Source: a virus (taxonomy: Duplodnaviria; Caudoviricetes). Taken from it: DNA of 64,000 nt. Under the pieces are notes generated by a model that saw only the letters and a list, made by a program, of their open reading frames with translations, had not been told where the DNA came from and ran no database searches. Below are positions 3,458 through 48,356 of this stretch, in pieces (the first letter of the stretch is position 1; each line of letters opens with the position of its first letter). Position numbers and translations under genes: made by a program. The stretch is taken from IMG/VR virus record IMGVR_UViG_3300021254_000021, positions 188,373 through 252,372 of that record, one strand, 5' to 3'.

Positions 3458-4975
3458 ATGAAAGTCAGACTTTTAAAAGCAAGTAATCTTTCCATAGCTT
3501 ATAATAAACAACCCATTCTCGCCAACATTTCTTTTGAGATAGAGGAAGGGGAATGGGTTTTGATACAGGGTTTTAATGGAGAGGGCAAGACTACACTAAT
3601 TAAAACCCTGTTAAATCTACATCCTTATGATGGTAGCATTAAGTTAAAAGGAAAAGAGATAAGAGAATACACTATAAACGAATTACACAGGTTATTCTCT
3701 TACTTGCCGCAACGTCTTTCTCATATACCAAATATTACCGTTTCCGATTTCTTATCCTTGTATAATGGTGATAAGGATAGAATTGTACGTAGGTTAAACC
3801 TAGCACATCTACTGGATTCCTCTTTAACGTCGTTATCTTTAGGACAGGTACAGCTTGTTTTGTTTGCACAGGCAGTCTTAGAGGACGCGGAAATTATTAT
3901 TCTGGATGAGCCTTTTTCATCCATAGACAGTGAGAATAAAGAGATTATTTACTCAACCATTAAGGATATGTCTTTAATGGGTAAAACGATTATTCTGGTA
4001 TCGCATGAGGTGGAACGGAATTATCTACCAGACCGTATTATTACGCTTTCAAATAGCAAGTCTTATGACTCCCCCGTTCTGGTAAAACAAAGAGTAAATA
4101 AAGAAATTGAGTGTTTACCTAAGTTGAATACTAAGCCTATTTTAATAGGTTCATTTATCCTAGTTATAATCTCATGTTTCATTCCATCTAATACACCCAT
4201 CTTACTAAGAGTTGTATGGTGTACCATTTCAGGTGGTGTCTTTGCTTTTATTGGGGCAGTTTTACAGCAACTTTATAAAAGAGAGACAGCAACGCCGAAC
4301 ACGTTAGGTATTACATCTTTTAGTATATTAGGTGCAGTTTTACCCTCTTTATTAGGCATAGCTTCATTCTTAATAGATTCACTATTCGCTGTAATATGCG
4401 GGTTAATCAATGGATTATTTTTAGTCAAAAGAAATACAGTAACTTATGGTGTGATAGGCGGGCTAGGTATAGTATTATCCTTATTATTCTACGCTACTAA
4501 TAACCCGTCTTATTTCCATTGGATTATAGGATCTTTTGACATAGACACCTACTTTTCTCTTTTCCTTTTACCATTCATTCTTTTACCATTACTTGTTATT
4601 TATCATTATTCTAATATGATAAATGCTTTAGGAATAGATGCTGATATTGCCAGAGTGCATGGTATTCATCCTAATAGGATACGTTTACTCGCACTAGGTT
4701 TATCCATTATCCCGATAGCGTTGACGGTATCACAAACAGGGTTACTCTTTTTTGTAAGCATGGTTATACCTTTAGCTATAACAAACAGGTATGGTATTTC
4801 TCTACGTAAGACATTACCCTCTATCTTTTTATTAGGGTCTTGTTTTACGTTACTCTCAGACATAGTAACACGTATAATAAACCACTTTACAATCTTAGAG
4901 ACTATAACGTGTGTAACTATGTTTGTTTTAAGCATTCCTTTACTTATTACATTTTCTTTTCTTAGGGGTAAGTGA
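3458..4975 (+). CDS. ABC transporter ATPase fused to FecCD/BtuC-type permease
   Basis: Walker A GFNGEGKTT, signature LSLGQ, Walker B ILDEP, H-loop VSHE; then multi-TM domain with FecCD-like LQQLYKRETATPNTLGI and ALGIDADIARVHGI; start uncertain. Confidence 0.85.
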   Translation: MKVRLLKASNLSIAYNKQPILANISFEIEEGEWVLIQGFNGEGKTTLIKTLLNLHPYDGSIKLKGKEIREYTINELHRLFSYLPQRLSHIPNITVSDFLSLYNGDKDRIVRRLNLAHLLDSSLTSLSLGQVQLVLFAQAVLEDAEIIILDEPFSSIDSENKEIIYSTIKDMSLMGKTIILVSHEVERNYLPDRIITLSNSKSYDSPVLVKQRVNKEIECLPKLNTKPILIGSFILVIISCFIPSNTPILLRVVWCTISGGVFAFIGAVLQQLYKRETATPNTLGITSFSILGAVLPSLLGIASFLIDSLFAVICGLINGLFLVKRNTVTYGVIGGLGIVLSLLFYATNNPSYFHWIIGSFDIDTYFSLFLLPFILLPLLVIYHYSNMINALGIDADIARVHGIHPNRIRLLALGLSIIPIALTVSQTGLLFFVSMVIPLAITNRYGISLRKTLPSIFLLGSCFTLLSDIVTRIINHFTILETITCVTMFVLSIPLLITFSFLRGK

Positions 4976-6860: not shown

Positions 6861-7173
6861 GCCAGTGTGGCGAAATTGGTAGTACGCAGCGGACTTGGTT
6901 ATTTGAGCCGTATATCGGGAAACTATATACGGGATGTGGGCTAATTCGGTGAAAGTCTTAGCAAGTAAAGTTGAAGATAACGCCGAGCTAAATCAGGATT
7001 TAATATTCTGTAAATGTGTAGAGAACATATACCCACAACCTAAACACTTAATAGTGCATGGTTAAGACATGTTCCAGACTACAACCCTTATAATAAGGGG
7101 CTATGGAAACATAGAGTAGTAAGAAAATCCGCTTCCCTTTACGGGAGTGTGAGTTCGAGTCTCACCACTGGTA
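6861..7173 (+). tRNA. trnL: tRNA-Leu(TAA) interrupted by a group I intron
   Basis: exon 1 6861-6896 ends GCGGA-CTT, exon 2 7124-7173 starts AAAA-TCCGC, giving loop CTTAAAA; acceptor GCCAGTG/CACTGGT. Confidence 0.92.
6897..7123 (+). ncRNA. group I intron (IC3-like, 227 nt, no ORF)
   Basis: inserted at U^AA of the anticodon, ends in G; TTGAGCC guide region, P3 GTGGG/CCCAC, P7 GAACA/TGTTC, layout parallels the cyanobacterial trnL intron. Confidence 0.88.
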
Positions 7174-28769: not shown

Positions 28770-29378
28770 ATGTTAGACGTAATGCAGGAAGCAGACTTAA
28801 TTCGTCGTGTTGCTAGAAAAGTATATTGGAACTCTAGGTATGCACGGTTGCGTACCCAGATTGATGAGGAAGATTTAATACAAATGGTTTTCCTCAAACT
28901 CTTACACCGTGACAATTATAAAAAGTATTCAGACAAATATCCTAAAGTTGGTTTTATTTATCGTGTAGCAAACGGTTGTGCTATATCTTTTGCAAATAAA
29001 TGTTCTAATATTCGTGAGTGGACTGTTTTGGATCAGCCTAGAGATAGTGATGATGATTCCAGAACAATCTTAGAGATATTATCCACAGAGACAGATGTAC
29101 AACATCTCGACTTGGATATGCAGTATCGTATAAACAGGTTATCCGCGAGCATGGACCCCGAGGTTAATCAGCAGATTGTTATACGTCATAATGATGTAGA
29201 CACTCCATTTTCCATAGAAGCTCTTTTCGATTTCTTTATTAAAACACACTATTCGAGAAAAGAGATTATGCCGTGTATAATAAACTTAAAGACGAATGCA
29301 CCAGTTACACAATCCACCTTTGATAAGTGGTGGAAAATATTAGAGAATACAGCCAAGCAGGAATTAAGCAGAATGTAA
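28770..29378 (+). CDS. sigma-70/ECF-like RNA polymerase sigma factor
   Basis: region-2-like DEEDLIQMVFLKL...FIYRVA.N. Confidence 0.6.
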   Translation: MLDVMQEADLIRRVARKVYWNSRYARLRTQIDEEDLIQMVFLKLLHRDNYKKYSDKYPKVGFIYRVANGCAISFANKCSNIREWTVLDQPRDSDDDSRTILEILSTETDVQHLDLDMQYRINRLSASMDPEVNQQIVIRHNDVDTPFSIEALFDFFIKTHYSRKEIMPCIINLKTNAPVTQSTFDKWWKILENTAKQELSRM

Positions 29379-36154: not shown

Positions 36155-36476
36155 GTCAACTACCAACCCGCTAAAGCGGGTTGGCTTGTAACTGACCTGT
36201 AGCTCTTGATCGAGTTTTTGAGACTCTACTACGTTTTTTACCAATCTTCTTTTCAGTAGATTGGCTGTCGTTACATCGTGGGGTGATTGACTGCACCCCG
36301 TAGGCTTAAAACATGTTTAAGACCCACTTAAACTTGAATCTTGGTGTTTAAGTTTAGAGAGTGCCTTCAGTCCAAGTACCAAACGGTTTTCTCCCTAAAT
36401 AAATTTTTTACTTGACTTAAAGATTTAAGTCAAGTTTTTACATTCCTCTCACGTGGCTAAAGTCATGTGGGTTTTC
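36155..36476 (-). mobile_element. non-autonomous IS200/IS605 derivative (no ORF), probably retaining a TnpB omega/reRNA scaffold
   Basis: GTCAACTACC-AACCCGCTAAAGCGGGTT end and CATTCC-TCTCACGTGGCTAAAGTCATGTGGG end; internal hairpins. Confidence 0.65.
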
Positions 36477-36489
36477 AACGAGGGTTCTT

Positions 36490-37377
36490 ATGAAGCAGAA
36501 CGTTGAGTATACACTGGTCAATGAAGAAAACTTTTCCACTGTAATAAGCCATCTTAAATCAGTAGATGGCATAATGGGCTTTGACACAGAGACAAACAAA
36601 GATGGGTCAATCCACTTCATTCAACTCTATTCCCCAGTATCTAATCAAACCTTTATCTTTAATGGGGATGATCCTCAAATAAAACTCTTACTGGATATAT
36701 GGGAAAGTATTAACGTTGTTGGGCACAATGTTCAATTCGACTTAGCCAACTGTTTAAAGCAATATGGAAGTTATCCAAACCCTGTTGCCGACACCTTTTT
36801 ATTAGCCTGTTCCTTACAGGAAGATCAAAAAGGATTAAAGCCACTGTGTAACCAATTCTTTGGTTTCCCTATAACCACTTGGGAAAGTCTTTTTAATGAC
36901 TATGACTATTCTGATATGACTGGCGAAAAATGGCACTATGTAGCAAATGATCCTTATTACACTTACTTATTATTTGAACATTACAAGCAGTTAGGTGCTT
37001 ACCGTTTTGTTAAAAAGGTACATGAGATAGACATAAAGGCGATGATTCAATACATGGAAGCCTCTGTACTAGGTTTGCAGATTGATCAAGAGAAATTTGC
37101 ACAATATCTTGAGCAATATACCAACCAAGTGAATGACTTACAGACCAAGTTAAATGAGTATGCAGGATGGGAAGTGCGAACAACATCCACCAAAGATCTA
37201 AAGAAATTATTGTTTGAACAACTAGAGCTACCCACACCACCCATTACCACAGAAAAGGGGGAAGTGAGTGTTTCCAAAGAAGCTCTTAGCTATGTACCTG
37301 ATAAGGATGGTGTTATCACACTTATCACCCAGATTAAAGAATCCCGTTCGGTCTTAGCCTCCATGAAGAATCTTTAG
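36490..37377 (+). CDS. polA: family A DNA polymerase, N-terminal part (3'-5' exonuclease + thumb)
   Basis: ExoI GFDTET, ExoII GHNVQFD, ExoIII YVAND, thumb S.KDLKKLLFEQL.LP...T.KG..S. Confidence 0.9.
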   Translation: MKQNVEYTLVNEENFSTVISHLKSVDGIMGFDTETNKDGSIHFIQLYSPVSNQTFIFNGDDPQIKLLLDIWESINVVGHNVQFDLANCLKQYGSYPNPVADTFLLACSLQEDQKGLKPLCNQFFGFPITTWESLFNDYDYSDMTGEKWHYVANDPYYTYLLFEHYKQLGAYRFVKKVHEIDIKAMIQYMEASVLGLQIDQEKFAQYLEQYTNQVNDLQTKLNEYAGWEVRTTSTKDLKKLLFEQLELPTPPITTEKGEVSVSKEALSYVPDKDGVITLITQIKESRSVLASMKNL

Positions 37378-37468
37378 GGGATAAAGTTAAATCCTTAAAT
37401 CCCCTGACACCAACTTTATAAAAATTTTCCCCCTAAATGGGGATGTCTCCCTTTAAAGGAATTGAAAC

Positions 37469-37729
37469 ATGACAAAAAGCCTAAACGTTGAAATCTTTAA
37501 TAACAACACTTTCCTTCAGTGGTTTCCTGCTACATCCATTAAAGATGTACTGAGCTTTATTGCTAGGTATGAAAAGATAGAGCGTATGTCTGACATTAAA
37601 CTTTCTTATCTGGTTTTTCAGCAATCGAACAATGGTAGGTATAAAGGTCTTTCTGGCCGTTACACAAAAGTGTGTAGCATTCATGCTACGGGTAACGAGA
37701 AACCCAAATTCTTTGATTTGATTCAGTAG
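37469..37729 (+). CDS. hypothetical protein
   Basis: RBS AAGGA; behind repeat element. Confidence 0.6.
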   Translation: MTKSLNVEIFNNNTFLQWFPATSIKDVLSFIARYEKIERMSDIKLSYLVFQQSNNGRYKGLSGRYTKVCSIHATGNEKPKFFDLIQ

Positions 37730-37816
37730 AGACCATTAAGGGGATAAAGTTAATTCCTTAAATCCCCTGAGACCAATTTTACAAAAATCTTTAACCAACT
37801 TTAAAGGAGAAAAAAC

Positions 37817-37975
37817 ATGACAGTAAAAGAGTTGATTGAAATCTTAAAAACATTTAACGAAGATTATGAAGTTGTTGGGCCATGTAAAGATGGTTCTGAA
37901 TGGATTCAATGTGAAATGTGTGAATCTGATTTTACACAGGATGACAACGAAAAGGTAATGTACATTTCAAAATAG
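37817..37975 (+). CDS. small hypothetical protein (52 aa, MTVKELIEILK...)
   Basis: read from sequence; strong RBS AAGGAG; below ORF-track cutoff. Confidence 0.7.
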   Translation: MTVKELIEILKTFNEDYEVVGPCKDGSEWIQCEMCESDFTQDDNEKVMYISK

Positions 37976-38036
37976 TCAACTGTAAACTATTTATTGGATG
38001 GAAACATTCCATCCAATAAATCAAAAGGAGAAAAAC

Positions 38037-39032
38037 ATGAGTAACAACAGTAATTCCAACATCTACCTCAACCTTGACATCCTTCGTTTTATGCCACCTT
38101 GCAGGACTAATCGGGATGAAAATAACCGTCCAAAAACTATTATAATAAATGGCGGAGAACGTCTTTTCATTTCATCACAATGTATTAAATCCTGTCTTAG
38201 AAGTCAATTCGGCCTTCAGATGGATGTAGATAAAGACAAACTTATTGAAGATATAAAGGAATGTAATAAAGAGTATAAAGAGGAAGACTTACAAAAGAGT
38301 TTTTACCTCTCAGAAAGTTTTGTGAAAGATCTTATTAAAAGTAAAGATAAGGGTGGAGATAATGTTGTATTATTTATGTCCTTTAAGGAATTAGTCGAAA
38401 CATATAAAGCTAAAAAATTAATTTGGTGTAAGAAATTTCCTGCCATAGACATTTTTGGAAGAATGTATGCTTCTGATGAAGATGCTAAAACGGAGGCTGT
38501 TTCTCAAATAGCTCCTGCATACTCTGTCCAAGATGTTACTGTATTAGTTGATTTATGGGTTTGCCGTAACTCTTTGACAGATAAGAAAGGGTGTACAACT
38601 ATGGGTAATAATGAATTGTTATCTTCATTAGTTTACTTTAATGCGAATCTAAATCTATCCGAACTTCTTAATCGAGGATATTCTAAAGAGACAGTAATTT
38701 ACCTAGCTAAAACGTTTACAATGGGTATGTACACTTTGCGTCTTAATTCTGGTGTTTCTGGTACTTCTCATAACACCCTTCCATCTTATTGCCATATAAC
38801 AATAGGTAATGTCCTTCCATTAAATCATTCTTCTTTATTCTACACTTCCCCAGATAAGGATCATGTGATAGAGGAAAGTATTAGTAAGCTAAAGGAGAAA
38901 ATTGAGAAGGATAATAATGCGTTAAAGGCAATCAACTCATTCTATGGAAATCCAACGAGGATTGATTCCTTTGAGTTTAATCCAGATAACTTTACCTATT
39001 TACAAAACTCATTAAATTCAATGCTTGAATAA
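38037..39032 (+). CDS. cas7: type I-E Cascade backbone Cas7 (Cse4/CasC)
   Basis: PPCRTNRDENNRPKT...ISSQCIKS.LR, DIFGRMYA, EA..QIA.A.S. Confidence 0.92.
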   Translation: MSNNSNSNIYLNLDILRFMPPCRTNRDENNRPKTIIINGGERLFISSQCIKSCLRSQFGLQMDVDKDKLIEDIKECNKEYKEEDLQKSFYLSESFVKDLIKSKDKGGDNVVLFMSFKELVETYKAKKLIWCKKFPAIDIFGRMYASDEDAKTEAVSQIAPAYSVQDVTVLVDLWVCRNSLTDKKGCTTMGNNELLSSLVYFNANLNLSELLNRGYSKETVIYLAKTFTMGMYTLRLNSGVSGTSHNTLPSYCHITIGNVLPLNHSSLFYTSPDKDHVIEESISKLKEKIEKDNNALKAINSFYGNPTRIDSFEFNPDNFTYLQNSLNSMLE

Positions 39033-39067
39033 ATAGGAAACGTAGATTCTACCTAAGAAATTTTAGT
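39004..39067 (+). promoter_or_regulatory. CRISPR leader 1 (identical 64 bp to leader 3 at 41918-41981)
   Basis: AAAACTCATTAAATT...AGATTCTACCTAAGAAATTTTAGT abutting the first repeat. Confidence 0.85.
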
Positions 39068-39392
39068 GTAATTCCCCCATATAGGGGGATGTTCCTTTGG
39101 ATTCTCACTGAGTTTCCTTATGAAATCCGTAATTCCCCCATATAGGGGGATGTTCCCCTGCGGACAAACGCTTTGTGGTGCGTGTGCATTAGTAATTCCC
39201 CCATATAGGGGGGATGTTCCTATTATGGCTAGGACGGAAGCAATGTCCTTATAGTAATTCCCCCATATAGGGGGATGTTCCCAAGTTAGGTATGTGCTGT
39301 TTTCGTGGTAACAAGTAATTCCCCCATATAGGGGGATGTTCCTAGATTCTACCTAGATATTTTTAGTGTAATTCCCCCACACATAGGGGATC
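39068..39392 (+). CRISPR. CRISPR array 1 (type I-E), repeat GTAATTCCCCCATATAGGGGGATGTTCC
   Basis: repeats at 39068, 39129, 39192, 39254, 39315, degenerate 39368; spacers 33, 35, 33, 33, 25 nt. Confidence 0.97.
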
Positions 39393-39408
39393 TTTATTTG
39401 GAGGTTAT

Positions 39409-40179
39409 ATGCTTTCTGTTTTAACCTTAACTTTTGATTCTTATATTCAGTCTTTTGGAGAGAACTCTATTATAGCAAAACATAGAGACTCTGGTGACTT
39501 GCCTACTAAGAGTATGGTAATAGGAATGATTCTTAATGCTTTAGGGCATGATAAATACTCTGATGATCCAGACTCTAAGTGTTTACCAGAGGTATGGTCA
39601 AATAAACTTAGATTTGCTACTAAGAAGTTATACAAAAGAGATGCTTATAAAAAGACGGATTACTGTATAGCTAGGCGGAATGATAAAATTAAAGAGAATG
39701 ATGTGATAAAAAAAGATTACATTATCAATGGCAAATACCATGTTTACTTAGAGGGAGATAATGCTGATATAGTATATATTGCTAAAGCTCTTTTAAATCC
39801 TAAAAGACAGCTATATCTTGGACGTAAATGCTGTGTTTTACAAGACAGTTTGTGTTGGGATAAAAGAGAGACTAAGCCTACTATTACAGAGAATGTCCGT
39901 ATTGAGGATGTCATATTTAAAGATGTGAATCTAACGAAACCATTTCCTACTCATCTTATAGAAGGCGGAGATATAGCTCTATATAAGAAAAAGACTCTTA
40001 GTGAGGAAGGGAAACATTGTTTAGACACTGTGTTAGGCGGTAAAATGTGGAAGCCCACATTCTTCATAAAGAAGAAAACGACTCCATTGCAATTCGATAA
40101 ACAGTTATGGGGTGATATGCTTTGTTACTCTATAACCTATATGAAGTACAATGACTTAGAGGAGATTGAAGATGAATAA
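39409..40179 (+). CDS. cas5: type I-E Cas5 (CasD)
   Basis: IQSFG...R.S...PTKS.VIG.I.NALG; LYLGRKCC. Confidence 0.92.
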   Translation: MLSVLTLTFDSYIQSFGENSIIAKHRDSGDLPTKSMVIGMILNALGHDKYSDDPDSKCLPEVWSNKLRFATKKLYKRDAYKKTDYCIARRNDKIKENDVIKKDYIINGKYHVYLEGDNADIVYIAKALLNPKRQLYLGRKCCVLQDSLCWDKRETKPTITENVRIEDVIFKDVNLTKPFPTHLIEGGDIALYKKKTLSEEGKHCLDTVLGGKMWKPTFFIKKKTTPLQFDKQLWGDMLCYSITYMKYNDLEEIEDE

Positions 40180-40771
40180 TGAAACATTGCTTACTGTAAT
40201 AGATGTATCTCATTCTTCACGATATGCAGAGATAAAAGAAAATATGGATATTCTGCATGGTATTATATACTCAGCATTTTATCCCCATAAGGATGAAAAG
40301 AAATTATACCAGTGTGATGCAGAACAAAAAGAGATTAGGATTTTGTCTAATAAAGCACCTAGTAAAAGTCACTTAGTAGGCGAGTTCGATATTAGCTTTG
40401 ATGATATTCATATTTACGATTACTCTACTAGACTTAATAACATGACAGAGAAGAAGGTGTGTGATTTTATGTTGATTGGAAACCCTGTTTATAAACAGGA
40501 TGGACGGAGACTCCCTATTAAGGATAAAGAAGGGTGTGTGAAATGGCTGTTTGATAAGTCTAAGAATTTGGGGTTCATTATAAAAGACATAGACACTTCC
40601 TACATAGCTCCATATATAGGTAAAAATAACATTAAATTAAATACCGTACAGTTTAATGGTGTTTTAGAGATAACAGACTCCACCTTATTCAAGAATACAA
40701 TCTTAACAGGTATAGGGCATGAAAAAGGATTCGGGTTTGGTCTGCTATGGGTAGAAAATAAAACTCATTAA
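40172..40771 (+). CDS. cas6e: type I-E Cas6e (Cse3/CasE)
   Basis: LH..I..AF, F.L.GNP, V.F.G.L.ITD, GIGHEKGFGFGLL. Confidence 0.93.
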   Translation: MNNETLLTVIDVSHSSRYAEIKENMDILHGIIYSAFYPHKDEKKLYQCDAEQKEIRILSNKAPSKSHLVGEFDISFDDIHIYDYSTRLNNMTEKKVCDFMLIGNPVYKQDGRRLPIKDKEGCVKWLFDKSKNLGFIIKDIDTSYIAPYIGKNNIKLNTVQFNGVLEITDSTLFKNTILTGIGHEKGFGFGLLWVENKTH

Positions 40772-40822
40772 ATTGGAGTATTGGGTAAATAGAAACCGAG
40801 ATTCTACCTAAGAATTTTTAGT
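40760..40822 (+). promoter_or_regulatory. CRISPR leader 2
   Basis: homologous to leaders 1, 3, 4. Confidence 0.85.
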
Positions 40823-41073
40823 GTATTTCCCCCGTACAGGGGGATGTTCCTTAGTGGGCACTGAAAAAATATCTTTTTAATAAGTATTTCCCCCGTACAG
40901 GGGGATGTTCCTGTTCGCACCGTTTATAAATAAAGCTGTAATCGGTATTTCCCCCGTACAGGGGGATGTTCCTTTAAGGGTCGAAATGCCTTTAGTGCAA
41001 GGTGCGTAATTCCCCCTATATGAGGGATGTTCCTTTTCGACATTAATAATTCCCCCATATAGGGGGATGTTCC
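40823..41073 (+). CRISPR. CRISPR array 2, repeat GTATTTCCCCCGTACAGGGGGATGTTCC
   Basis: repeats at 40823, 40884, 40945, variants 41006, 41046; spacers 33, 33, 33, 12 nt. Confidence 0.97.
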
Positions 41074-41104
41074 GGGAGAGTTTCCATTTTAAAGGAGTTT
41101 AAAC

Positions 41105-41914
41105 ATGAGCGAAACACAGTTTAAAACAATACATCCAGAATATAAGATTGTTGGGTTTGATGGTACATCCCGTGTTTATTCTGGCAATCCCTCTTTATCC
41201 CAGATACCCAAAATTCTGCGTCATGCTGTTATTCCACATGAGGGTAACAAGTTTATGTATGTAGATTTGAAAGCGGCAGAAGTTTACATTCTTTGCAAAT
41301 GGGCTAAGTGTCAGGTGCTTATAGAGGCTTATGAGAATGGACAAGACCTCTACACCTTTATAGCCCAGACAGTCTTACATAAACAGACGATTGATAAGAA
41401 TGAGCGAGATACAATGAAGGTGGTGGTGCTTTCCATTCTCTATGGATCAGAGGGAAGTAGTGCGGCGAGGGCTCTACACATTACAGAGGAAGAAGCTAAA
41501 GCACTGGTAGATAAATTCATGTTTGCTTTTCCAGAGATTGCACAGTTTCAAGCTAATGCCTATGCTTACACTGTAGCTCACGGATACACTCAATCCTTTT
41601 ATTTTCGTCCTCGTATTCTTAAAGAGGATCAGTCTAATGGAGATGCTTCACGTAAAAGACAGTGTGTGAATAATGCTGTGCAGAATACGTGTGCAGACTG
41701 TCTTAAAATCTGTATTGGACAGCATGATAGAAAATCACCCATAAAGTTTATTACCACAGTCTTTGACTCTGTACTGTTTGAAGTACCACAGGACTTCACC
41801 ATAACTCAAGCTAAAGACTTCCTTTCCACCTTCTTTAAACCATGTGCCCCATTTAACTTTAGGTATGAGTATGCATTAGGGCAGACTTGGGGCGAGGCTC
41901 AAGATCAGCTTTAA
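41105..41914 (+). CDS. polA: family A DNA polymerase, C-terminal part (palm/fingers)
   Basis: TSRVYSGNPSLSQIP, motif A YVDLKAAE, motif B R...K...SILYG, N..VQ.T.AD..K, motif C TVFDS; own RBS AAGGAG. Confidence 0.92.
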   Translation: MSETQFKTIHPEYKIVGFDGTSRVYSGNPSLSQIPKILRHAVIPHEGNKFMYVDLKAAEVYILCKWAKCQVLIEAYENGQDLYTFIAQTVLHKQTIDKNERDTMKVVVLSILYGSEGSSAARALHITEEEAKALVDKFMFAFPEIAQFQANAYAYTVAHGYTQSFYFRPRILKEDQSNGDASRKRQCVNNAVQNTCADCLKICIGQHDRKSPIKFITTVFDSVLFEVPQDFTITQAKDFLSTFFKPCAPFNFRYEYALGQTWGEAQDQL

Positions 41915-41917
41915 AAT

Positions 41918-41981
41918 AAAACTCATTAAATTCAATGCTTGAATAAATAGGAAACGTAGATTCTACCTAAGAAATTTTAGT
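41918..41981 (+). promoter_or_regulatory. CRISPR leader 3
   Basis: identical to leader 1. Confidence 0.85.
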
Positions 41982-42129
41982 GTATTTCCCCCCCCCATAT
42001 AGGGGGGGATGTTCCTGATGCGTCCAGTGCATCATTATCTCATTTTTAGTGTATTCCCCCTATACAGGGGGATGTTCCTAGCGTTGCGGTAGACCTGATT
42101 AGTGATTTCCCCTATATGGGGGATGTTTT
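41982..42129 (+). CRISPR. CRISPR mini-array 3
   Basis: repeats at 41982 (expanded C9/G7 runs), 42051, degenerate 42102; spacers 35 and 23 nt. Confidence 0.9.
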
Positions 42130-42179
42130 GCTGTAATTAAATCCCCACAGACCAACTTTACAAAAATTTGGAGAGACTT

Positions 42180-44417
42180 ATGCCAACTACAGACCTTATA
42201 GAGGAAAGGACATATTCCTTTAATCTTTCAGACAAACCGTGGGTATTGGTAACAACAGAGAAAGGAAGTACAAAGAGACTTTCTTTAAGAGAGGTGTTTA
42301 GTCAAGCTGAGAACATTATTTGTCTTTCCAATGAGAATGTGTATGTAGATGCTTCTATAACCCTTTTGCTTTTTGCCATTCTCTATACAGCATATAGTAG
42401 AAATGCAGATACAAAAGATATGGATCAGGATGAGTTTACCTATCGTAAAGATGTTATTTTGGATTATTTAGATTCTGTGCATGACAAGTTTGATTTGTAT
42501 GATGCACAATATCCTTTCATGCAGATTCGAGAGGATTTTAAAGTAGAAAATGCCCCTTGTACTAAAGAAATTAAAGAAAGATCTAAACATGTTGGGTACG
42601 AGAAGGTTTCTAAGTCAAACTCTCTTAGAGCTAAAGGTAAAGAAATAAAGTGTTTGAATCCGTTTTCATCCTCATCCCATAAATCCTCTCAATGGTCTTT
42701 AAAAGAGGATTATACGGATGATTGGATAGCCCGTCACCTTGTTACATACAGACTCTTTCATTTGTCAGCGTCTGCGGCAAGAGGAGATTCTATTACGATA
42801 AAGGCGGGTGTTTTAACAAAAAATATTTCTCTAATGTTTATTACTGGTGAGACTCTGGCTGATCTATTCCATCTTAACTTTAAAGAAAAAAATCTTGGAA
42901 AGGAGATGCACCCTATATGGGAGCAGGATCAGGAAGCAGAAGATGCTTATATAAATAGTAAGGTATTTTTTGATAAAAAAGAAGGTGTTTATTATGATGC
43001 TTATTCTGATCATGCAGATATAGCTAGGATATTAACTTACAGTAATGTTTATATCAATATAGACCCATATAAAAAAGAAAAAGAATTTAGACAGTGCTAT
43101 CGTCTGCCAATAAAGTTGTTTAGTATTAGATCTAATTCCGATGGTAAAGACTCCTCAATGTATGATTGGTCATATCTTAGTGAAAGATTAAATATCTTTT
43201 GTGGCAATCTGGACAGAAACTCATACTCAATACAAAAAGAGATTCTATGGGATTCTGATAATGAGTCTTTAATTAAAGCAAAGTACATTTCTTTAGTGCG
43301 TACACCAGAATTAAATGATCAAAATTCCACTTACACACAACTATTCACAAAACCAATAAATCTTATTGGAAATGGTTTACTTAAAGTTGATACACAGGAT
43401 GATGACCATAAAGAGTACATACGAGATCTCTTTACTAAGTTATGTGGTACACTTGAGGCGTCAGAAAATAAATTTAAAAATAGGTGTGATATTGCTTTAA
43501 AACAACTCTTTAACAAAGATGACCCAAAGAAGAATAAAGGAAACAAGAAAAAGGAAACGATTTCAAAGATATATGAAAGTATTCATGTATCAGATTCCTC
43601 TTATGCAGAAACCCAATTCTTTGATTTCATTACATCAATAGCAGAGAAGCTATCGGATGCAAACTTACTAGAAAAAGAGGAGAATGCACTAAGTAAAAGG
43701 GTATATGCTCATTACCTAACTTCGTATAAAAACTTTATTAAAGACTACTGTCCCAAGCTGTACTTCTTACTAAGCGACAAACTAACACTAGGAGTAAATA
43801 CAATGAGTAAACTCGAAACTATAAAAGCTATATCCACAAATACTTATGCCTGTATGAAAGCTAACTTTAAAGACTTAGTACAGCTAAGAAGTATGCGGCA
43901 ATGTAAATATGTCCCAGACTTAAATTTAGAGGGCTTTCGTTTATTCTCGAATGGTGGAAGGAGAGATCACTATATGAAGGAAGGTATTAAATATGCTTTA
44001 TATTTGTGGTCAAACCACCAACATAAAATGGGTGATGGTTATGCAGGAGTTATTATAAAAGAAGACTTTATAAAGGAAACCACAAGCTACAAGAATACCT
44101 TTGGGTATGTGATGTATAAGTTAAGACCATTCTACACTGAAGATGAATGGAAAAGCAAACTACATAAATATGAATTAGCCTCACATAACATAGATAGGCT
44201 TGCCAAATTCATCCTACTTACTACTAAAGAGGCTTTAGACCATAATATAGATGTTCAGTTAGACTATGGCCGTCTTGCCTATTTCTTTACTCGAATCTTA
44301 GAGAATACAGGTAATACACATGAGTTTCTTGAAGATGTTATGGTAGGGTTTTACTTAGCTAAAGAGGAAGTAATTTCTCGTACAGGGGAATGTTCTGAGG
44401 AAAGTGAAACTCATTAA
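42180..44417 (+). CDS. cas8e: type I-E Cas8e (Cse1) fused in frame to Cas11 (Cse2)
   Basis: FNLSDKPWVLV, FDLYDAQYPFMQ (Cse1); C-terminal YALYLWSNHQ, TFG, LDYGRLA (Cse2-like). Confidence 0.88.
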   Translation: MPTTDLIEERTYSFNLSDKPWVLVTTEKGSTKRLSLREVFSQAENIICLSNENVYVDASITLLLFAILYTAYSRNADTKDMDQDEFTYRKDVILDYLDSVHDKFDLYDAQYPFMQIREDFKVENAPCTKEIKERSKHVGYEKVSKSNSLRAKGKEIKCLNPFSSSSHKSSQWSLKEDYTDDWIARHLVTYRLFHLSASAARGDSITIKAGVLTKNISLMFITGETLADLFHLNFKEKNLGKEMHPIWEQDQEAEDAYINSKVFFDKKEGVYYDAYSDHADIARILTYSNVYINIDPYKKEKEFRQCYRLPIKLFSIRSNSDGKDSSMYDWSYLSERLNIFCGNLDRNSYSIQKEILWDSDNESLIKAKYISLVRTPELNDQNSTYTQLFTKPINLIGNGLLKVDTQDDDHKEYIRDLFTKLCGTLEASENKFKNRCDIALKQLFNKDDPKKNKGNKKKETISKIYESIHVSDSSYAETQFFDFITSIAEKLSDANLLEKEENALSKRVYAHYLTSYKNFIKDYCPKLYFLLSDKLTLGVNTMSKLETIKAISTNTYACMKANFKDLVQLRSMRQCKYVPDLNLEGFRLFSNGGRRDHYMKEGIKYALYLWSNHQHKMGDGYAGVIIKEDFIKETTSYKNTFGYVMYKLRPFYTEDEWKSKLHKYELASHNIDRLAKFILLTTKEALDHNIDVQLDYGRLAYFFTRILENTGNTHEFLEDVMVGFYLAKEEVISRTGECSEESETH
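43803..44417 (+). CDS. cas11: Cas11/Cse2 from putative internal in-frame start (204 aa)
   Basis: AGGAG at 43790-43794, 8 nt before in-frame ATG (MSKLETIK...). Confidence 0.7.
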   Translation: MSKLETIKAISTNTYACMKANFKDLVQLRSMRQCKYVPDLNLEGFRLFSNGGRRDHYMKEGIKYALYLWSNHQHKMGDGYAGVIIKEDFIKETTSYKNTFGYVMYKLRPFYTEDEWKSKLHKYELASHNIDRLAKFILLTTKEALDHNIDVQLDYGRLAYFFTRILENTGNTHEFLEDVMVGFYLAKEEVISRTGECSEESETH

Positions 44418-44468: not shown

Positions 44469-44741
44469 GTATTCTCCCTATACAGGGGGATGTTCCTAAC
44501 CCGTAAGTGTTGGGATCGGTTCGTTACACGTATTCCCCCTATACAGGGGGATTTTCCTCTTAGTGAGGTATGAGAATGAATGAATTTGACGTATTCCCCC
44601 TATACAGGGGGATGTTCCGGTGATGCCAAAGCTGAAATAAAACTAAAGAATAGTATTCCCCCTATACAGGGGGATGTTCCTAGACTTCCCAGTCTTTCGC
44701 GTTTCACACCTTTGTACTTTCCACTGTACGGGGGATGATAA
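44469..44741 (+). CRISPR. CRISPR array 4, repeat GTATTCCCCCTATACAGGGGGATGTTCC
   Basis: repeats at 44469, 44530, 44591, 44653, degenerate 44714; spacers 33, 33, 34, 33 nt. Confidence 0.97.
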
Positions 44742-44774
44742 AAGTATTTAACCAACTTTAAAAGGAGACAAGCA

Positions 44775-47456
44775 GTGTTGAGTATTTCAAGAGAAATTCT
44801 TGGTAAAAAAGAAGGGGATGCTTCTTTATCTTTACAATACCACCTTAATGATGTGGCAACCGTAGCGGAGTTTCTTTGGGATAAATGGTTATGTTCAGAG
44901 ACAAAGAAAGAGATAGAAGCTGTTTTCCCTCAAGCGAGATCCTTTCTTTTACTTTCCTGTTACCTACATGACTTAGGCAAAGCCTCTACGGATTTCCAAG
45001 ACCGACTTCTCTCTGGTAGTAGAAATGGTATAGATCATGTTACTTTAACTAACTTTATGTTGTCTGATTATGTGGAATCCTTTATTGGAAAGAGTAAAGG
45101 AAGGAAATTATTGGAAGATAGTTTCCTTCGTGAGGTGCTTTCATATCATCATGGAATACTAGCCCTTATCCATTTAACACAAACTCTATCTACGTCAGAA
45201 GGTGTAAAAGAGGAAACGTTTAAAAATCAAAGGTATATTCAGTTTAGCCAGACTTGCTTATATATAGAGTCTCTTTTAGAAGAATTGAATTTATCAAAAG
45301 ATATTCTTACACTACCACGTAAAAGTATTCCTTTTTATGTACGAGACACTTTATCAGGATTGTTAATTATGTCAGACTGGTTAGGTAGTACCGTACAGTT
45401 GTTTCCTTACAATGATTTACCTTATGAGGATAGAAAAAAGAGGGCGTTAGATCAGCTTAATAATCTCCTAGTCAATACTTCGATAAAGAAATTTGAATCA
45501 CAGGAAACCTTCTTTTCAGAAGTATTTGGTTTTGAACCTAATGCTTTACAAAAGTCTGTATTTTCTGTGGATGTTTCCTCTAAAAGATTAGTATTTATGG
45601 AGGCCCCAACAGGACATGGTAAAACAGAGGCGGCTATAACTTTAGCTTATCGTTATTGTGATCTTACTGATAGAGGTATTTATATAGCAATGCCCACCAG
45701 AGCTACCAGTAATGCCTTATATAACAGAATCAGCGGCTTTATAAAGAAGGTGTATAATAACCCAGAGATGTGTAAGTTGTATCATTCTAAAGCAGACCTC
45801 TTCTTTTATTCTAAAGGTGATGATGAATGTAAAGAAGATATGGATATGCCTAGTTGGGTATTAGACCATTTTTTCAAATATAAGCTAACTAATGCGAGAA
45901 AGTTTATTCTTGGTACAACAGACCATGTATTAAAGATGTGTATGAATGTTAAACACTTTACTATGCACCATGCTTGCTTAGTAAATCATGTTATTGTGTT
46001 TGATGAGGTACACTCTTATGATGATTGTATGTTTTCATGTCTCTGTGCTTCATTAGCCCTTTTAGCAAAGTATAAAGTCCCCGTTATTATTCTGTCAGCA
46101 ACCATGCCCGATGAAAAGAGACAACAGCTTATAGAGGCGTATGGCAGAGATATGTCTTTGTGTCTTAATGCTTATCCCAAAAGTGAATCTATTATAGACG
46201 ATGATATAGTAGTGAGAGTTAAAGAGAAGGAAAAGAATAAAGTAGTATCTTTTGACCTTTCCTTACAACCAGAGTATTGTCCACCAACAGAACATGAAAA
46301 AGATGCAAGGGCTATAATAAATAAAATAAAGTCTTTAGGTAGCACTGGTTATTATGGCGTTGTTGTAAATACAGTGGACAGATCACAGGATTTTTATGAC
46401 TTCTTTACAGAGGAATTTGGTAAAGATAATGTCATTCTTTTGCATTCTCGAATGGTTGCCGAGCATAGAGAGGCAATAGAAAAGAACCTTATTTCCTCTT
46501 TAGGTAAAAAAGGGTTTAGTAAAAGAAAAGAGGGGAACTATTTTAAGGTAGTTATTTCTACTCAAATTGTTGAGCAGAGTATAGACATAGACTTCGACTG
46601 TTTGTTTACAGACTTGTGTCCAATGGATGCTTTAGTTCAAAGAGTGGGGCGACTGCATAGGCACAGTCAGAATGATTCTTATAGACCTAGAACATTAAAG
46701 CAACCATTCTTTTATGTAATGCAAGCCTATTCTAAAGTACAGAAGGAGGATGGTCTAGTTTCTTATATAACCGACTTTTCTAATTGTACAGACAATTATG
46801 CTAATCTTATTTATTCCCCGTACTTGATGCTTGCTACTTATGCAGAACTGATCTCTCTTAATGGTAAGTTAGATACCGTTACAGAAACAGAGAAGGTAAT
46901 AAAAGGAGTATTTAATTTTAACGCTGATAAGAGCTTATTTGGAAAGTCTTTAATGCAGATTCATTCTGAGTATGCTTTAGATAAGAGTGCTACGGAACAT
47001 GATACATACAAGGATATGTTTATAAAGTCGGAAGATCTTAAAGACTTTAAAAAGTATTTAAATAAGAATAAGAGTTTCTTGTTAGAAACAGGTTTAAATG
47101 AAGTCAAGGACGGAGAAGTCCGAGATACATTACCATCATTAGAAGTAATTATGCTTAATAAACAAATAGATGAGTATGGTAATACCACATATACCTCATG
47201 CTTTGATGGTTCTGTACTGCATACTTTTAGTAAAGAGGAAACAGATTTCCATACAATAAACCTACCCACTAAGATTGTTCGTAAAAGTGGTGGGATAAAA
47301 GCATTAAGGGAGAAGTTAAAAAGTATGAAACCTGAGAGAGTAAAGTTAAACAGATCTCCGTATTTAGTGTTTGAAGATGCGGAATTACTACCTTTACAAG
47401 ATACTGGAATAACTCTTTGGTATGATAGGGATAAAGGCTTAATGATTTGTGGCTAA
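44775..47456 (+). CDS. cas3: Cas3 HD nuclease-helicase
   Basis: HL.DV, LHDLGKA, HHG, SDW.GS; APTGHGKTEAA, DEVH, SAT, QRVGRLHRH. Confidence 0.96.
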   Translation: MLSISREILGKKEGDASLSLQYHLNDVATVAEFLWDKWLCSETKKEIEAVFPQARSFLLLSCYLHDLGKASTDFQDRLLSGSRNGIDHVTLTNFMLSDYVESFIGKSKGRKLLEDSFLREVLSYHHGILALIHLTQTLSTSEGVKEETFKNQRYIQFSQTCLYIESLLEELNLSKDILTLPRKSIPFYVRDTLSGLLIMSDWLGSTVQLFPYNDLPYEDRKKRALDQLNNLLVNTSIKKFESQETFFSEVFGFEPNALQKSVFSVDVSSKRLVFMEAPTGHGKTEAAITLAYRYCDLTDRGIYIAMPTRATSNALYNRISGFIKKVYNNPEMCKLYHSKADLFFYSKGDDECKEDMDMPSWVLDHFFKYKLTNARKFILGTTDHVLKMCMNVKHFTMHHACLVNHVIVFDEVHSYDDCMFSCLCASLALLAKYKVPVIILSATMPDEKRQQLIEAYGRDMSLCLNAYPKSESIIDDDIVVRVKEKEKNKVVSFDLSLQPEYCPPTEHEKDARAIINKIKSLGSTGYYGVVVNTVDRSQDFYDFFTEEFGKDNVILLHSRMVAEHREAIEKNLISSLGKKGFSKRKEGNYFKVVISTQIVEQSIDIDFDCLFTDLCPMDALVQRVGRLHRHSQNDSYRPRTLKQPFFYVMQAYSKVQKEDGLVSYITDFSNCTDNYANLIYSPYLMLATYAELISLNGKLDTVTETEKVIKGVFNFNADKSLFGKSLMQIHSEYALDKSATEHDTYKDMFIKSEDLKDFKKYLNKNKSFLLETGLNEVKDGEVRDTLPSLEVIMLNKQIDEYGNTTYTSCFDGSVLHTFSKEETDFHTINLPTKIVRKSGGIKALREKLKSMKPERVKLNRSPYLVFEDAELLPLQDTGITLWYDRDKGLMICG

Positions 47457-48215: not shown

Positions 48216-48356
48216 ATGATTAAGAATACAGTTTTTGCTCTTTTCCTTATTGCTTGCCTCTTTGTCCTGTTCACCAATGTTGGTTTTGAGACAGCTCTGG
48301 CTATAGTAGGTAGGGGTCTGGATATGATGATTGCTTATGTCAGCCATATTCCCTAA
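48216..48356 (+). CDS. small membrane protein (46 aa)
   Basis: RBS GAGGAG; hydrophobic MIKNTVFALFLIACLFVLF. Confidence 0.6.
   Translation: MIKNTVFALFLIACLFVLFTNVGFETALAIVGRGLDMMIAYVSHIP

Follow-up and report, generated by a model that had tools for sequence, protein, structure and literature searches.

Ahead of the cas8e gene of a rumen phage, the last repeat of a CRISPR array (array 3) lies next to the 3' part of an element that recurs between the genes of the same genome, and the G-run of the repeat falls where the left arm of that element would be. Has the repeat taken over the role of the left arm, are the two sequence families related by descent, or does the arrangement record an old rearrangement?

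The locus and the dispersed element

The record is a 252,372-bp IMG/VR phage genome, estimated to be 94% complete, and the window analyzed here is its final 64 kb, with a GC content of 37% and almost every gene on the + strand. The phage is T4-like and comes from ruminant guts; it carries a T4-type baseplate-hub gene, and gut metagenomes of goat and bovine origin, from 14 studies, contain near-identical DNA. Its type I-E repeat, a palindrome of 28-29 nt with a period of about 61 nt, is found beside cas7, cas5, cas6e, cas8e and cas3 (Table 1). The locus contains four units made of a leader and an array of 3-6 repeats, located after cas7, cas6e, polA-C and cas8e. The leaders share the sequence AAACTCATTAAATT...AGATTCTACCTAAGAA(A)TTTTAGTG, and all four arrays terminate in remnants of the 3' part of the dispersed element. 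No match to the Cas1 or Cas2 families was obtained anywhere in the whole record; for a phage devoid of cas1 and cas2, any spacer acquisition must occur in trans. Repeats, leaders and elements together form a patchwork in which the cas8e junction is one seam.

Table 1. Features of the cas locus and of the repeat-element contacts (positions in the window; gene assignments at 36.5-47.5 kb are from Pfam).
Feature	Position	Strand	Remarks
polA-N	36490-37377	+	Pfam
Canonical element (37377-37425) and solitary repeat-like hairpin (TTTTCCCCCTAAATGGGGATGTCTCC)	37377-37452	+	hairpin score 16; 5' region of an 86-aa ORF
cas7	37998-39032	+	Pfam
cas5	39409-40179	+	Pfam
cas6e	40166-40771	+	Pfam PF08798, E=1e-26
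polA-C	41105-41914	+	Pfam
Leader 3 of array 3	41915-41981	+	starts 4 nt past the polA-C stop codon; homology with each of the remaining three leaders
Two full repeats of array 3	41982-42016 and 42051-42079	+	34-nt spacer between them
Oldest spacer, truncated	42080-42101	+	22 nt; identical in L065, L066 and L069
Terminal repeat, 3'-degenerate (GTGATTTCCCCTATATGGGGGATGTTTT)	42102-42129	+	hairpin CCCC-TATAT-GGGG(G)
GGGGAT of the terminal repeat	42119-42124	+	occupies the left-arm position of other element copies
N16 interval containing the fusion point	42125-42140	+	first 8 nt, repeat handle or unknown origin; last 8 nt, element-like
Retained 3' part of the element	42141-42167	+	right arm ATCCCC, N5 ACAGA, box CCAACTTTACAAAAAT
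Shine-Dalgarno site GGAGAG and cas8e	42171-44417	+	Pfam CRISPR_Cse1; fused Cas11-like C-terminus, as remarked in the first-pass annotation
Degenerate terminal repeat of array 4 and element tail (TATTTAACCAACTTTAAAAGGAG)	44714-44767	+	ahead of cas3
cas3	44775-47456	+	Pfam
Dyad hairpin 1, L060 lineage			GGGGAGTTAAA / TTTAACTCCCC
Dyad hairpin 2, L060 lineage			GGGAGGATTAAA / TTTAATTCCCCC
Dyad hairpin 3, L060 lineage			GGGGGAGTTGA / TCAATTTCCCC

The gene order varies among relatives. Relative L024, whose Cas8e is 47% identical, has the two halves of polA as neighbouring ORFs (295 and 274 aa; L024:2874-4614) uninterrupted by cas genes, compared with 36490-41914 in the window, and a cas8e-cas7-array block is located 5 kb away from them; in L058 the order is array-polA-C-cas8e. 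The polA-C half has thus changed place relative to the cas genes. At the other end of cas8e, the final codons (44373-44417) traverse a degenerate repeat (ATTTCTCGTACAGGGGAATGTTCTG) and then enter leader 4, which supplies the stop codon, as if the ORF had taken in what remained of an old array.

The dispersed element consists of a GGGGAT-N16-ATCCCC stem-loop, 5 nt, a box CCAAYTTTACAAAAAT, often a second CCAAC..TTTAAAGGAG, and the Shine-Dalgarno (SD) site of the next gene; it is placed directly after stop codons and directly before SD sites. A strict pattern (GGG-N22-CCC-N4-8-CCAA..TTTA) gave 16 overlapping hits genome-wide, corresponding to 14 distinct copies that are all on the + strand and include the cas8e junction. 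A looser survey of the whole genome, based on the C-run and the box, detected 28 copies, again all on the + strand, and CCAACTTTA occurs 13 times in the window versus 1.15 expected. All the GGGGA-N16-20-TCCCC dyads of the genome are attached to the box. The stem is 6-7 bp long, the pairs of A-GGGGAT/ATCCCC-T being present in 78-96% of copies (85-96% for GGGGAT/ATCCCC), and pairing in the loop interior is not above that of slid controls in the phage genome. Some copies do not have a left arm (genome 158531, window 21724). In 22 of the 27 copies other than the junction, the end of the G-run is separated by 20 nt from the last four C's and by 29 nt from the box. No indel was found across 23 copies despite interiors that are just 43% identical pairwise, which indicates that the spacing of the element is constrained.

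The same unit, with the box CCAAGTTTTCAAAAAT, is present in a sister lineage (L060, L067 and L068; 41% Cas8e identity). Its dyads form long hairpins of differing sequence (Table 1), with gaps of 18-20 nt (20, 20, 19 and 18 in the canonical elements). The covariation of these stems points to the element being a hairpin.

The element also marks an edge at which gene content changes. Relative to L065, 214 nt of the window (37810-38023) are exchanged for 1210 nt carrying three small ORFs (L065:3182-4391); the swap begins at the 3' edge of an element (37809/37810) between flanks that are 97-98% identical, and run X9 contains contig joints at 37722-37855 that match the swap site. A separate stretch of 334 nt (36155-36488), with flanks about 97% identical, is absent from L065.

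A consensus scan revealed no sigma-70-type -35/-10 promoter at the elements, and the position 17 nt past TTTACA falls on the TTAAAG/GGAG of the SD site. The distance from box to SD ranges from 3 to 25 nt; where it is as short as 3 nt, the box must be transcribed or read by a factor other than sigma-70. The tail AACTTTAAAGGAG of the element appears to resemble the 'epsilon' translational enhancer region of T7 gene 10 (TTAACTTTAAGAAGGAG), which makes it plausible that the box acts at the RNA level. The second box with its SD, for instance at 37789-37806 (TTTAACCAACTTTAAAGGAG), likewise appears to resemble this leader region. Family searches for a T7-type RNA polymerase and for MotA gave no match, but neither did their controls, which makes these searches uninformative. 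A 202-aa ORF (28770-29378) has a weak match to Sigma70 region 2 (19 bits, under the cut-off) and could be a phage sigma-like factor for a non-standard promoter. With its polyG/polyC stem-loop, conserved box and SD, the dispersed element is best read as a unit similar to the PeSLs (promoter-early stem-loops) of T4-type phages, which are composite stem-loop and promoter cassettes (PMC2839356; PMC4122927).

The junction between array 3 and cas8e

The unit that closes array 3 is a true type I-E repeat. Aligned locally to the repeat consensus, it scores 17; control GGG+AT sites have a median score of 6, with about 11.8 at the 99th percentile. The alignment extends across stem and loop, and the hairpin is present in the minimum free energy fold. 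The final two repeats of L065 are recombined in this unit, with the loss of one spacer. The 22-nt oldest spacer is common to close relatives, unlike the leader-proximal spacers, which differ among them. The first repeat of the array has expanded runs (C9...G7 versus C5...G5 elsewhere), which may reflect slippage or a homopolymer assembly effect. In both lineages, terminal repeats have their 3' handle swapped for a T-rich tract (TGTTTTG, TCTTTATTT, GTTTTA, TTCTTCTTTT; window 42123-42130 and 39391-39402; L067:2420-2440, 3480-3495 and 7110-7125), and in sequence such repeats look like weak intrinsic terminators.

The first-pass annotation had placed the G-run of this repeat exactly 24 nt before CCCC-ACAGA and stated that the geometry of the element is thereby kept. 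Both statements proved accurate: the G-run occupies 42118-42122 and CCCC occupies 42143-42146, which is 24 nt start-to-start from 42119, ACAGA follows, and the spacing is that of the 22 conforming copies described above. The box lies at 42152-42167 and is followed by the SD site. The cas8e ORF could start at 42168 or 42180, the ATG at 42180 being probably the start codon, and ends at 44417.

The composition of the N16 interval locates the breakpoint. Its first 8 nt share 15% identity with other copies, versus 44% among those copies, and begin with GTT, resembling the GTTCC of the repeat handle; its last 8 nt are 48% identical to other copies, versus 42% among them. With handle-like sequence on one side and element-like sequence on the other, the fusion point lies within the loop of the element and not at the shared GGGGAT. 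Two simple origins were rejected. Microhomology at GGGGAT does not fit, as the repeat handle extends beyond this motif in both lineages, and neither does insertion of an array into the middle of an element, as no left arm is present upstream of leader 3. The predicted RNA fold contains the repeat hairpin but not the pairing of the GGGGAU/AUCCCC dyad. As the hairpin outcompetes the dyad and a Cas6e cut at G^AU would part both arms, the G-run is unlikely to be the stem partner of the right arm in RNA.

Five relatives with 90-95% Cas8e identity (L023, L065, L066, L069 and L070) have kept the junction with the same spacing and together with the oldest spacer, so that it forms the fixed trailer end of array 3. 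Substitutions among the six junctions of this lineage are few, and none falls within the arms or the box. The locus of the L060 lineage is ordered cas7-array-cas5-array-cas6e-array-cas8e-array-cas3, and the array before cas8e ends ...GTGGGGGTGTTC-AAACATTCAGTT(T)-CCCC-GTCCA-CCAAGTTTTCAAAAAT. The terminal repeat reads GGGGGTG there, not GGGGAT; it retains (G)TGTTC of the handle, followed by 12-13 unrelated nt and then CCCC. L060 has a gap of 18 nt, and L067 and L068 one of 17 nt; this is a 1-nt indel among near-identical relatives, and the spacing of the junction in the sister lineage drifts, at or below the canonical range of that lineage. We read the junctions ahead of cas8e in both lineages as orthologous and old. 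In a third lineage, L058 (48% identity), cas8e is preceded by a degenerate repeat and then by an unrelated 10-bp hairpin. The changes seen between relatives are repeat-repeat and leader-repeat recombinations.

Repeats and elements meet at other places as well. As reported in the first-pass annotation, array 4 runs directly into an element tail, from about 44745. Array 1 joins the element at AT|CTTTA, its end reading GGGGAT|CTTTATTTGGAGG. The L060 lineage has three junctions of the form G-run-(T)TTTA-CCAA box and one array end in which the repeat is followed by a complete element. Array ends thus meet the element in various registers, and the cas8e junction is one of several. A degenerate repeat also precedes the element at 48345.

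Solitary repeat-like hairpins are found right after the box at 37426-37452 in the window, at genome 113774-113800 (L001:1517-1543) and at about 520-545 and 1125-1150 of L067. In relatives their stem is conserved, and the loop and handle are variable. The genes downstream are the 86-aa ORF, a 98-aa ORF and, in the L060 lineage, cas7; these hairpins may be Cas6e processing or binding sites in messages. Within array 1, the last 'spacer' (39344-39395) duplicates 23 nt from the 3' end of a leader and matches leader 4 of L065 exactly (L065:11073-11095). This identity and its absence from array 1 of L065 suggest that it is a recombination scar rather than a conserved guide.

Origin of the junction

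The reading that we prefer, to which we give about an even chance, is that 42102-42167 is the trailer of array 3 fused by an old deletion to the 5'-truncated head of a PeSL-like cassette. The deletion would have removed the left arm of the element and about half of its loop, leaving the last repeat, with most of its 3' handle, beside the right arm, the box and cas8e. Placed next to the right arm in this way, the GGGGAT of the repeat would sit at the former left-arm position. Transcription would proceed rightwards through leader 3 and array 3, and Cas6e would cut at the base of every repeat hairpin, the terminal one included. The cas8e message would then begin around AUGUUUUG, with a 5' region made of right arm, box and SD, and the repeat hairpin would replace the boundary hairpin given elsewhere by the stem-loop of the element itself. 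The likeness of GGGGAT/TCCCC to the repeat would stem from two generic features and not from common descent, type I-E repeat stems typically ending in ...GGGG^AU and PeSL stems being commonly polyG then polyC. The anatomy, conservation, breakpoint position and spacing statistics were computed; what we infer is the cleavage by Cas6e, what the box does and in which direction the ancestral event went. What argues against a deletion is the exact spacing in all six sequences of the lineage, the genome-wide constraint on spacing and a second case of a repeat-like left arm at L065:3456. A deletion with random endpoints would give the exact spacing by chance in roughly 3-10% of cases, a figure that is our estimate and not a computed output.

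The resemblance between the two sequence families is narrow. It had been proposed that the arms match the right and left halves of the CRISPR repeat in swapped order; this is literally true but thin, the shared letters being just GGGGAT(R) and (A/T)TCCCC. As the repeat is palindromic, the two matches are not independent and represent one motif, not two. AT follows about 1/6 of the G4 runs of the phage genome that lie outside both families. The repeats of distant relatives carry GGGGATG (ATCTTCCCCACGCTTGTGGGGATGTCCC) as well: no element was seen in the available DNA of L024-L030 and L061-L064, though their repeats contain GGGGATG, nor in the 12 kb of L024-L026, where arrays are present. The motif therefore belongs to the repeat family, and from these comparisons the likeness is probably just the shared GGGGAT/CCCC stem. 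Beyond GGGGAT, the similarity of the left flank to the repeat is marginal, at 8.19 versus 7.62 for matched GGGGAT controls (p=0.015, with copies that are not independent); CC(C) is found 4-7 nt before the G-run in 9/26 copies versus about 15% of control sites; and at L065:3456 a repeat-like CCCC-ATTAA-GGGGATG (GTACCCATCCCCATTAAGGGGATGG; repeat score 12, above the control 95th percentile) serves as left arm with exact spacing. These three observations hint at a deeper link but do not amount to evidence for it.

Could the repeat be a working part of the element at cas8e? GGGGAT-N16-ATCCCC may be a site that depends on its spacing, such as one bound by a dimeric phage regulator just upstream of the box, with the GGGGAT of the repeat selected as the left half-site; this would tie cas8e to an accessory-cassette regulon and possibly to the occupancy of the terminal repeat by Cas6e. 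Such a role would account for the rigid spacing despite saturated interiors, for interior pairing that does not exceed slid controls, for the attachment of every dyad of the genome to a box, for variable sites falling outside the arms and box, and for the repeat-like left arm in L065, and exact spacing within a spacing-constrained family favours a half-site at the DNA level. We nevertheless hold it to be rather unlikely: the sister lineage has a polymorphic spacing of 17-18 nt and a GGGGGTG terminal repeat, its varied long dyads fit a hairpin better than a bipartite protein site, some copies have no left arm, and a candidate binding protein was not found. The drift in spacing and the absence of the dyad from the predicted fold also leave unsupported the proposal of the first-pass annotation that the repeat doubles as left half. 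A broader version, in which the GGGG^AU of both left arm and terminal repeat is selected and spacing-critical, either as a regulator half-site or as a Cas6e-type processing point that fixes 5' ends 29 nt before the box, would make repeat and cassette signal one regulatory system with the cas8e junction as its clearest specimen; we think this distinctly unlikely.

Common descent and seeding, both put forward in the first-pass annotation, fare less well. The element could derive from a unit of terminal repeat, trailer and box, its left arm being the decayed 3' part of a repeat, and have spread by PeSL-type recombination. The enrichment of a CC(C)-N5-GGGGAT remnant before left arms, the score at L065:3456 and the solitary repeats that adjoin elements in both lineages would fit, but the extra similarity is small and measured on related copies, no likeness extends 3' of GGGGAT (interior consensus RRAG versus handle GTTCC), GGGGATG occurs in repeats of element-free relatives, and polyG/polyC stems exist in PeSLs of phages without CRISPR (PMC2839356). 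This makes the descent improbable in our view. If, instead, the dyad had been used as a pseudo-repeat by host Cas1-Cas2 or by recombination, arrays would have arisen at element sites, as might be expected from the element 3' remnants at all four array ends, from a phage whose acquisition must take place in trans and from leader-proximal spacers that vary between relatives. It is hard to reconcile with leaders that start within the 3' ends of upstream ORFs with no left arm or element remnant before any of them, with a dyad of opposite polarity (G-run then C-run) and a gap of 20 nt versus a loop of 5-7 nt, and with L026, which has arrays between cas genes and no element seen; we consider seeding highly improbable. 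A crossover at the shared arm itself, finally, does not agree with a breakpoint about 8 nt beyond GGGGAT and, in the L060 lineage, past the whole 3' handle. What stands of the recombination claim is that recombination or deletion joined the array trailer to the element and that the product was kept in relatives.

If the fusion is purely historical, it is a clean, dated example of the decay and rearrangement of a phage-borne array at its trailer end, and it also shows PeSL-type cassette heads as breakpoints in a T4-like rumen phage. If the half-site is borrowed and functional, a CRISPR repeat has been exapted into the expression signal of the phage's own cas8e, and, in a phage without cas1 and cas2, the processing of crRNA would be linked to the production of Cascade.

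Comparison with known systems

Pattern scans of IMG/VR for the element, the repeat and the L060-type variants returned 0 other records, and a scan with a Cas7 peptide returned no relative. A metagenome pattern scan gave 27 hits, all unrelated and mostly CCCCAA telomere-like repeats of AT-rich DNA. Scanning GTDB genomes with the repeat core gave 14 single chance matches and no array, so that no host was identified. INPHARED searches of the locus and arrays by megablast and blastn yielded chance hits only (E about 0.5) and no protospacers, and Rfam nothing relevant. No RNA run was found among the sequencing runs that contain the phage; the host is uncultured. Partial spacer matches that contain the seed were at chance level for the region upstream of cas8e, the cas locus and the element, the conserved short spacer included, and the sole spacer match within the phage genome was that of a1s5, which relative L065 lacks, to the leaders.

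The arrangement ahead of cas8e recalls the regulatory mini-arrays found upstream of cas8 (Shmakov et al. 2023, PMC10120712), with a conserved repeat, a short spacer and a degenerate repeat directly before cas8e, and with solitary repeat-like units in the locus. In contrast to these mini-arrays, it is the tail of a normal leader-driven array. The lone repeat-like hairpins are comparable to the solitary repeat units and RNA anti-CRISPRs of phage genomes (Camara-Wilpert et al. 2023, PMC10651486), but here the phage encodes the cognate Cas proteins and the lone units lie in the 5' regions of genes right after the box. At the scale of the locus, a phage of 252 kb that has interference genes and compact arrays but neither cas1 nor cas2 resembles the CRISPR-Cas systems of huge phages (Al-Shayeb et al. 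2020, PMC7162821); it differs from them in being of type I-E, in having a leader and array after nearly every cas block and in the presence of a split polA half within the locus.

Two comparisons bear directly on the junction. As in the degenerate repeats at the trailer end of CRISPR arrays, the last repeat of array 3 has diverged at its 3' side, the oldest spacer is conserved and the leader end is variable. Unlike ordinary trailer ends, and owing to the interleaving of arrays and cas genes, this trailer continues into signals for the expression of a cas gene. The element, for its part, shares with PeSLs (Arbiol et al. 2010, PMC2839356; Comeau et al. 2014, PMC4122927) a dispersed, intergenic and composite character in a T4-like phage, a stem-loop of polyG then polyC as described for their stems, a position before small accessory genes and cassette differences at its edge. 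It departs from them in having no fitting sigma-70-like -35/-10, which is a defining trait of PeSLs, in a box that lies 3-25 nt from the SD site and may act in RNA, in its unusually rigid spacing and in the fusion of one copy to the trailer of a CRISPR array.
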